The position numbers were made by a program. Below are positions 53,001 through 56,000 of a stretch of 64,000 nucleotides of DNA, piece after piece. Location: NCBI RefSeq assembly GCF_003018235.1, contig NZ_CP027437.1. One strand, 5' to 3'. This DNA is from Escherichia coli. Lineage in GTDB: Bacteria; Pseudomonadota; Gammaproteobacteria; Enterobacterales; Enterobacteriaceae. Position 1 is the stretch's first letter. Each line of letters starts with the position of its first letter.

Positions 53001-56000
53001 TCAGGCTGTTTTTCTACTTTCCAGTGATGCTTACCCACGGCTATCTCCTTAAAACTGTGGTTACTTTTCATCTGATGAGTCTTTAATCTTTTGAAAAATA
53101 TCTGGACGTAATTTTTCTTTTGATACGCCAGTGGTCTTTTCAATGAAAATCGAGAGCTTTGCAGGGGGACGCTTTTCTCTGTTCAACCAGTTCCAGACAT
53201 GTTGTTGCTTTACTAAATGACCGCTGCTGGCTGTGAGCTTCCGAGCCAATTCTGATTGACCACCAGCCAGAGCGATTGCCTCCGATAAGGCTAATTGCTC
53301 AGGTGTCATAGCTTTCTCCTTTTTCGGTAGTTAAGTTGTTACGAGATGCAAGAATACAACATTAACAACTTTTATCACAACTTTTAGGTGTTGGAAAGCT
53401 AAAACATAAAGTTGTAACCTCATCAGAAAAGAGAGGGATATGTTGTGAAAACACTGGCAGAACGATTAAAGATAGGTAGAGAGAAAGCTGGCATGAGCCA
53501 AGCTCAACTAGCTGAAAAAATTGGACTTTCACAACAATCTGTAGCCAAAATAGAGAATGGAGAAACTCTACAACCGCGCAAAATTAAAGAAATTGCAAAA
53601 ATTTTAGGTGTATCACAAAAGTGGTTACAACTTGGTATTGAAGACAACGCATCCATACCTGATCTTGTTGTAAAAGAAGCAGAAAGCACCGCATTAGACC
53701 CCGATATTTTCGTAAACATTCCTGTTTTAGATGTCGAGTTATCGGCTGGTAACGGATGTCTGGCTGAAATAGTTGAATCAGCTATTGACTGGTTTCCGTT
53801 AAGAAGAGCAGATTTGAGAAAATCTGGCGTATGTGCATCTAATGCCAAGATCGTAAAAATCTGGGGGAACAGTTTATTACCGGTTCTCAATAATGGAGAT
53901 CTTGTTGCCGTTGATATTTCTCAAACCGTTCCTATTCGTGATGGCGATCTTTATGCCGTACGAGATGGTGTATTGCTAAGGGTTAAAATACTTATCAACT
54001 TACCTGACGGTGGCTTGATTCTTAGAAGCTTCAACAAAGATGAGTACCCAGATGAAATACTCACCTTTGAGGATAGACGAGCCAGAATTCATGTTATAGG
54101 TAGGGTATTCTGGTCATCGCGAACTTGGTAATGCGTCGAAAAGCATTTCTTCAGAAATAATTTTAAGTTTTGCACCATTATCATCCCGATAAGATATAGC
54201 CTTTTCGATCTTCCTTCCGTGACTTGAGAATTTCCAATCACGGGAGGAAAGCGTCCCTATTACTAAAAAATCCAACTTTTGAGTAATTCCACTACTGATG
54301 TTCCCACCAGCATTTTTAATCAAATTTTCAACTACGGCTCTCTTTCCTGCAACAAAAGTGCCTGTAAGACAATAGGTTTTACCCTCTAACTCTATCGAAG
54401 CCCCTACATCAATAGGCAGCCTGGTCGCCAAACCATCCACCACCCCACTTTCCAAGTCACATCCAGTGAAGTCTACTAATGCCTTATGTAGAGTTAAACT
54501 CTCATCTTCAGTAATAACACCATCTTTAAGAATTTCCTTTACAAGTGCATAAAGGTTTTTTCCTGGGTAGTTGTTCCTCAAAGCTCCATTTTGCTCAAGC
54601 CACCAATTAAGATATCTTATTTCTTCTTGAGTTAAGTTTCGATCAGCAATTAATCATTTACATAGTCCATTAAGTAAATGGACATCTACATCTTTGGAGT
54701 AAAAATCAATTTCAGGGATATCAAGAATTTCTCTCTGTATTTGAAGAAGGCTATTTTTAAGGTCATCACGTTCTTCTGATGTGATTATTCCATCCGCAAG
54801 AATATCCGATACCCGTGCTGATAGACTTTTTATAACTCCATTATTGATAATCTGCTTTGCTTCAAGTAACCATGTATCTAAGTAAAGAACCTCCTCTTCA
54901 CGGACAACTCCATCTGCAATGATTCCATCAATGATGCTAATCAAGTTAGCAAATAACTTGTCCCGGTTCTGTGTGTAATTAAAAGCGTAAAGCGCGTCTT
55001 CCATACAACCTCCTTTTTTTGATAATCCTTGCACTCCTTGACTACACGTTCAAACTACATAAAGTTGTTGACAACATTCAAAACAACAACCAGATTACAA
55101 CTTAAAGGTGTTGAGATGACGAACAGGCAGGACGCCCACGAAGTAGCCGTCTGGGGCATATGAAGTCCAGGATGATTCGTTAGCAACAAAAAAGCGCCCT
55201 ATAGGACGCTTCGCTCTTTAACAATCTGGATGACTTATTACTCAGATTTGAACTTTGGTTCTGGCAAAAGAGGAGGAGTTGAGTCCTCGAATCGTAGCCA
55301 GTGCTCCCAGATATCGTGGGATTGTAATTCCAGAAGACCAATTTGACGTGATGCAACTGCAGTGCCAGCTATAGTTCCTCCTGCATAATCAACCTGGACG
55401 GACTTTGACGCTTTCTCAATTAATTCTGTCCAAGCTTCACTTTCCGCGTTAAAAGAAGCAGTTAATTCCTGCAGACGCTGTGGATCATCCTTGTTGTCTT
55501 GTTTCAAACGATTCAGGGCGGCCACCGAATACTTATTCTTAACCCAGCTAACCTGAGCTAACTGAACTCTCTGACAAGCGTCCATATCAGTAGTTGTTTC
55601 CTGAGGCATATCAAAGCAGGAAATAAAAAAAGTCTCAACACCATCATTTAGACTACTGCTCGGCTGGTTCAAAGCATCAGAAGCATTGGATGCTATCGGT
55701 ATTATCAGTGCTACCGACAGAATCAAACGTTTAACATAAATCGCTCCCATTTAATTATCCCCTCTAAGAACAGAGTCATCCAGATTATCTGAATCCTTGT
55801 TGTTGGGGAATAACCAGGCCCACCTCGCCTGATGTGGCTAAAAGCAGGCACATAACAGCTAAGTATTTTCAACCAGAGAGAATCCTTAGCGTTGTGGTGA
55901 ATGCGGCTCAGCGCACGCGGGCTAAGGTTGAGGCTGACAGTCGACCTTCTGTGGATACCCACCCGCCTGGTGTGCAACCTTCGCCAGGCACCGGGAGGCA

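Follow-up and report, generated by a model that had tools for sequence, protein, structure and literature searches.

A stretch of 64,000 nucleotides (nt) of the Escherichia coli contig NZ_CP027437.1 (assembly GCF_003018235.1), referred to here as the window, carries on the minus strand of a prophage two short open reading frames (ORFs), 54654–55034 and 54114–54581, separated by an in-frame TGA. This arrangement raises the question of whether the locus contains two genes, one gene whose opal codon is read through, or one gene that has been inactivated. We find that the two ORFs are parts of a single gene for a helical protein with a C-terminal BRCT domain, in which one G>T transversion has converted codon 117 from GGA (Gly) to TGA. 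The stop is absent from all homologues, is present in independent assemblies and is accompanied by no recoding signals. The best account, to which we assign a probability of about 0.9, is a plain nonsense-mutation pseudogene of one prophage accessory gene, undergoing neutral decay in a defective prophage.

Reading frame and internal stop

Minus-strand translation of 54114–55034 yielded one open frame interrupted once, by the TGA at 54656–54654, and closed by a terminal stop, the TGA at 54116–54114, which bears out the preliminary description in placing both ORFs in one frame. The gene starts at ATG 55004, 4 bases past an AGGAGG at 55014–55009 and in agreement with the start annotated in RefSeq homologues; the GTG at 55034 is not the real start. 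The gene thus delimited (55004–54114) is 891 nt long, and the internal TGA is codon 117 of 296. Around the stop the frame reads ...HLLNGLCK-(stop)-LIADRNLTQEEIRYLNWWLEQNGA-L(TTG)RNNYPGK..., and the longer translation reads ...DVDVHLLNGLCK-(stop)-LIADRNLTQEEIRYLNWWLEQNGALRNNYPGK... and runs on to the terminal TGA. The 24 codons past the TGA were as earlier written, with no further stop in 54653–54582. The parts of the gene are:

54114–55004, minus strand: whole 891-nt gene, a probable pseudogene; orthologue of the 296-aa (amino acid) protein WP_000389078.1, 'BRCT domain-containing protein' (PHROG 3989), by gap-free alignment
54654–55004, minus strand: 5' fragment from ATG 55004 to the TGA, 116 aa, comprising module 1 and the first residues of module 2 helix 1; AGGAGG at 55009–55014
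54654–54656, minus strand: premature opal stop TGA in place of codon 117 (GGA, Gly); single G>T at window position 54656
54582–54653, minus strand: 24 sense codons in frame (LIADRNLTQEEIRYLNWWLEQNGA) that separate the TGA from the first canonical restart codon, by translation
54114–54581, minus strand: 3' fragment, a 155-aa ORF from TTG 54581, comprising the rest of module 2, the linker and the BRCT domain

In its intact form the 296-aa protein has two four-helix modules that are related to each other, followed by a BRCT domain at the C-terminus. The modules occupy the N-terminal 185 residues, with helices at 14–94 and 111–180; the AlphaFold2 (AF2) model places individual helices at 14–29, 36–52, 56–69, 76–94 and 111–119. 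Module 1 (residues ~21–87) and module 2 (~112–178) share 39% identity over 67 aa (E = 6e-13), with EEVLYLDTWLLEA aligning with EEIRYLNWWLEQN, so that the downstream codons do continue the upstream repeat, as had been proposed. Gly117 is located in the first helix of module 2 and the stop therefore falls within a helix rather than in the linker; the codons at 54653–54582 encode, in intact alleles, the rest of that helix and helix 2 of the same module. The C-terminal ~90 residues match the BRCT profile (Pfam PF00533) and adopt a BRCT fold, and the domain corresponds to codons 206–290 (54135–54389). The label 'TerB-like' found no support in sequence, as the TerB profile (PF05099) matched neither the full protein nor any of 17 N-terminal sequences at E ≤ 10.

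Origin and age of the stop codon

To place the TGA, the locus was compared with homologues from other strains. A megablast search of 54000–55200 against 5,426 complete E. coli genomes in RefSeq matched the full region in 46 of them, with identities of up to 97.9%, and the feature beneath each match listed was a 'BRCT domain-containing protein'. In the two E. coli records examined, this was a single 891-nt coding sequence (WP_000389078.1, 296 aa) beside an XRE/S24 repressor. The three-way DNA alignment of the window with these two genes was ungapped and set the window TGA against GGA in both; within codon 117, T versus G is the sole difference between the window and the intact E. coli alleles, which carry GGA (Gly) there in all three cases (L001, L002 and L013). 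Since the 891-nt frame, at 97.9% nucleotide identity, can be aligned gap-free along its whole length with annotated 296-aa genes, the earlier suspicion of one gene with an opal interruption, and not two genes, proved right. WP_000389078.1, which is found intact in E. coli and Enterobacteriaceae and belongs to PHROG 3989 (function unknown), is the same gene in the same place beside a CI-like repressor, whereas the window copy has TGA for GGA at 117 together with K143R and K150N and codes for only 116 of the 296 residues. A 101-nt query centred on the stop reached a best identity of 97.0% among the 46 matching genomes, so that none of them carries the window haplotype.

At the protein level, 354 homologue clusters were recovered, nearly all of the best 120 being 292–300 aa long, and intact homologues were also present in Salmonella, Citrobacter, Serratia, Klebsiella and Plesiomonas. 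No other family member among the 354 clusters is split at the same point; shorter entries stem from truncation at contig ends or from unrelated frameshifts. In an alignment of 26 homologues with 68–92% identity, drawn from Escherichia, Citrobacter, Kluyvera, Serratia, Enterobacter, Klebsiella, Salmonella, Cronobacter, Plesiomonas and a Pseudomonas-labelled entry, residues G113, L114, C115, K116 and G117 were all invariant (motif GLCKG), and the equivalent of Gly117 is kept even in Orf2 of the Vibrio phage K139 at 33% identity. Given this invariance and the T in place of G at 54656, the stop replaces an invariant glycine through one G>T transversion.

The TGA allele recurs in independent data. 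In a collection of 15 billion proteins, the exact 116-aa product (ATG to TGA) was found on 60 contigs and the 155-aa downstream ORF on 57. Over 6,351 nt the Logan assembly SRR7691681 (L003) matches the window at 99.98% identity, and a look-up of the exact window repressor protein led to four further NCBI assemblies (L010, L011, L012 and L014), in which the BRCT gene is base for base that of the window, TGA included, and to one more locus (L013). Five independent assemblies (L003, L010, L011, L012 and L014) thus share the identical TGA allele, with loci 99.96–99.98% identical to the window, and the lineage fixed for it is represented by dozens of assemblies. Carriers of the TGA include GCA_024116395.1, GCA_054505945.1, GCA_034021455.1 and GCA_017023395.1. 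In the NCBI assemblies with this allele, the interval from the repressor to the following gene is annotated without any protein, in keeping with a pseudogene annotation.

The closest intact allele, L013 (GCA_021171005.1), shares its repressor protein with the window and codes for all 296 aa; only 4 of its 891 nt are different, giving I99V, stop117Gly (TGA/GGA), R143K and T216A relative to the window, so that the mutation is recent. Against strain JCKP02 the window gene shows 12 differences, of which nine are synonymous, two are the conservative replacements K143R and K150N, and one is the nonsense change. Arg at 143 and Asn at 150 each occur in intact members of the 26-homologue alignment. This mostly synonymous pattern indicates that purifying selection acted on the gene until a short time before the stop appeared, and a stop so recent has left the downstream half without time to decay. 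Of the origins that had been put forward for the TGA, a recent inactivating mutation is therefore the one that the comparison across strains supports, with Gly in all intact alleles and a stop at 117 in the window.

The chromosomal backbone at window positions 1–12000 (ettA-radA-nadR-lplA) has its best match at 98.6–98.7% among the 5,426 genomes, and the window appears to come from an E. coli lineage absent from that collection.

Loss of the gene and its alternatives

The prophage extends leftwards from an integrase gene (60590–61813) beside yjjG. After its Q antiterminator gene (46666–47418) come IS100 (~42.1–44.1 kb) and, at 44012–44896, a 294-aa fragment of a group II intron reverse transcriptase, and then lysis genes and the gene for the small terminase subunit. 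Of the large terminase subunit 250 aa remain (32010–32762), next to an IS3-family transposase (30776–31822), and the tail gene for TipJ (27552–30314) stands directly after that transposase. Because TipJ follows directly, most head and tail genes are missing; judged by these features (27552–47418) the prophage is defective, and the loss of an accessory gene from it is unsurprising. The IS100 istA gene (42201–43223) also has an in-frame TGA, as had been noted, at 43011–43013 on the plus strand (codon 271). Compared with an intact copy on a Salmonella plasmid, it shows one difference in 1,023 nt, TGG>TGA (W271stop). From its sequence, the window copy of IS100 probably cannot make a full-length transposase, and the istA stop is a second ordinary nonsense mutation and not a sign of unusual decoding. 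Nonsense pseudogenes of this sort in decaying prophages and insertion sequences, istA among them, have a single-base premature TGA and common intact copies, and the BRCT pseudogene does not differ materially from them.

Signals of recoding were sought around the stop. An RNA fold of the 101 nt around and after the TGA gave a minimum free energy of -11 kcal/mol against -12.7 ± 2.5 for shuffled sequences (z = +0.66), with no hairpin resembling a selenocysteine insertion sequence (SECIS) and no other stimulatory hairpin after the TGA. An Rfam scan of 53000–56500 at a permissive E-value gave no match within the BRCT gene. The stop lies in the tight-termination context AAA-UGA-U: a U at +4 is described as lowering readthrough in E. 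coli (PMC5289835), and T after the stop raised termination in a 117-reporter library of premature stops, in which TGA readthrough almost always inserted Trp (PMC11126739). Background misreading would accordingly yield a G117W protein altered at an invariant helix position. The sole canonical restart codon before the BRCT domain is TTG 54581, with a GGAG just 2 nt upstream; this stretch is the same as in intact alleles, which argues that no restart signal has evolved. A six-frame scan of the window for lone stops with 90 or more stop-free codons on either side otherwise returned tandem genes and antisense frames. It revealed no pattern beyond the BRCT gene of systematic TGA reassignment or of many split genes, and a split-gene candidate at 37930 was rejected on finding its frame full of stops.

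These data bear unequally on the other explanations of the TGA. A sequencing or assembly error in a truly intact gene would likewise show as a single-base difference; however, the same TGA in an identical 891-nt gene in five independently sequenced and assembled genomes, the 116-aa product on 60 contigs, and the fact that the change is a substitution rather than a homopolymer indel effectively exclude this source, which had been suggested earlier. Functional recoding, in which opal readthrough with Trp or selenocysteine insertion would give a regulated full-length protein, could draw on the open frame downstream and on the leakiness of UGA, described as the leakiest stop in E. coli with measurable readthrough of premature TGA, mostly with Trp (PMC11126739). 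Yet the likeness to programmed opal readthrough or selenocysteine sites goes no further than an in-frame UGA beyond which the frame stays open. Only one lineage carries the stop, every homologue has Gly in its place, no stable downstream structure or Rfam match accompanies it, its +4 U is unfavourable to readthrough, and decoding by Trp would put that residue at an invariant Gly within a helix. We regard recoding as highly unlikely, and nothing supports programmed readthrough at this site.

A further alternative is an adaptively split or truncated gene, in which the 116-aa module is functional, the BRCT half is reinitiated at TTG 54581, or selection favoured loss of the BRCT half, for instance to be rid of a costly activity. 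The position of the stop near the boundary of the two helical modules, the fixation of the allele in a lineage with dozens of sequenced isolates and the undamaged downstream half would agree with this. But the stop hits an invariant residue within helix 1 of module 2 and not the linker, the only restart codon lies in a stretch unchanged from intact alleles, no such split occurs in the 354 clusters, and an undamaged downstream half is to be expected of a mutation ~2 substitutions old, so that an adaptive split or truncation seems very improbable. Selection for the truncation might also take other forms: the 116-aa module might keep or gain activity, or losing the BRCT half, or the 3' 540 nt of translation convergent with the repressor, might alter immunity or induction. 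Conditional UGA readthrough, for instance at low temperature, might still supply a little full-length G117W protein. We consider this reading very improbable. With the prophage already defective, the truncation is most readily explained by neutral decay of a gene that was dispensable. On this favoured account, the G>T transversion that changed codon 117 from GGA (Gly of the GLCKG motif, in module 2 helix 1) to TGA arose recently in one E. coli lineage and became fixed there; translation from ATG 55004 would end after 116 residues; and the second helical module and the BRCT domain would no longer be made, save by trace misreading of UGA, while the dispensable gene decays. The downstream polypeptide, and with it the function, would be lost. 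Several points weigh against simple inactivation. The downstream half shows no further damage, which fits a recent event and by itself is no proof of lost function, and the 15 billion proteins did not include the exact intact ancestor (G117, R143, N150). The 116-aa fragment may also retain residual function, and trace readthrough (Trp at 117) or reinitiation at TTG 54581 may occur.

For annotation, the two short ORFs should be recorded as one pseudogene and not as two hypothetical proteins, and the internal TGA should not be read as evidence of recoding; beyond this, the finding is of little significance.

Protein family and immunity region

The intact orthologue matches PHROG 3989, a phage protein family of unknown function, over residues 2–295 of 296 (E = 1.5e-128), and a sequence search of the PDB with the protein returned no match. 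A profile of the N-terminal half, searched against 1.84 billion representatives, hit 1,407 clusters (50% identity clusters) at E ≤ 0.001, most of them with members of ~290–305 aa. Four of ten longer relatives examined (445–502 aa; P0215, P0245, P0247 and P0259) have an N-terminal DEDDh 3'-5' exonuclease, and in them the helical module stands between this exonuclease and the BRCT domain; these proteins match the PADLOC profile PDC-S48 at E = 1e-28 to 1e-37. The window family protein matches the same profile weakly and only in part, residues 119–251 aligning with positions 239–377 of 411 (E = 2.4e-07), and the DEDDh exonuclease part is absent from it. The window family thus shares a helical module and the BRCT domain with exonuclease-BRCT proteins of the PDC-S48 and NCBIfam PRK06195 type, but has a second helical module instead of the exonuclease. 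By these profile matches it would be an exonuclease-less relative of exonuclease-helical-BRCT proteins. PDC-S48 is itself only a candidate defence protein; our literature search found no publication on it and nothing relevant on BRCT domains, prophages and anti-phage activity combined. The intact gene, as part of a large, uncharacterised, repressor-linked helical-BRCT family in several genera, may merit a study of its own, for which the TGA allele would provide a natural loss-of-function control.

Two further features define the surroundings of the gene:

53445–54131, plus strand: CI-like prophage repressor with helix-turn-helix and S24 peptidase domains, 228 aa (NCBIfam and PHROG matches)
55191–55212, minus strand: hairpin resembling an intrinsic terminator, with a T-run, after the upstream 170-aa ORF; 9-bp stem with 5 GC pairs

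The BRCT gene is convergent with the repressor gene, their 3' ends overlapping by 18 nt (54114–54131), and on the other side of the repressor lie a YdaS-type Cro and then YmfL. The same four-gene layout with convergent overlap occurs in Serratia marcescens, a Klebsiella-type contig and Plesiomonas shigelloides, with different outer flanks. Across E. coli, Serratia, Klebsiella and Plesiomonas (L006, L007, L008 and L009, around 5001–6560) the overlap measures ~9–18 nt, with Cro and CP76/YmfL next. The terminator-like hairpin suggests that the BRCT gene may form a separate transcription unit.

Orf2 of the Vibrio cholerae phage K139 (NP_536630.1) resembles the window family at 33% identity over 282 residues and likewise has two helical modules and a BRCT domain. 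Its gene adjoins cI, as the BRCT gene adjoins its repressor; however, orf2 stands directly after cI and is co-directional with it in an annotated lysogenic operon, cI-orf2-glo-int, whereas the window gene is convergent and overlapping. In the literature searched we found no function for Orf2. Judged by its position, the BRCT gene would be a lysogen-expressed accessory gene of the immunity region, and the intact product is most likely a candidate DNA-end-binding or phosphoprotein-binding accessory or exclusion factor expressed in the lysogen.

Directly upstream of the BRCT gene and on the same strand lies the 170-aa ORF (55238–55750, minus strand), which matches PHROG 7681 (unknown function) from end to end, returned no NCBIfam or PADLOC match, and has a hydrophobic, signal-peptide-like N-terminus (MGAIYVKRLILSVALIIPIASNA...). 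In K139 the gene adjoining orf2 is glo, which encodes a periplasmic exclusion protein; the parallel with the 170-aa ORF is positional only. Between this ORF and a yfdP-like gene, in the early-left region of the prophage, there is a full-length match to the gammaproteobacterial small RNA family STnc100 of Rfam (55861–56083, plus strand; 44.5 bits, E = 1.2e-07), just under the gathering score of 47.
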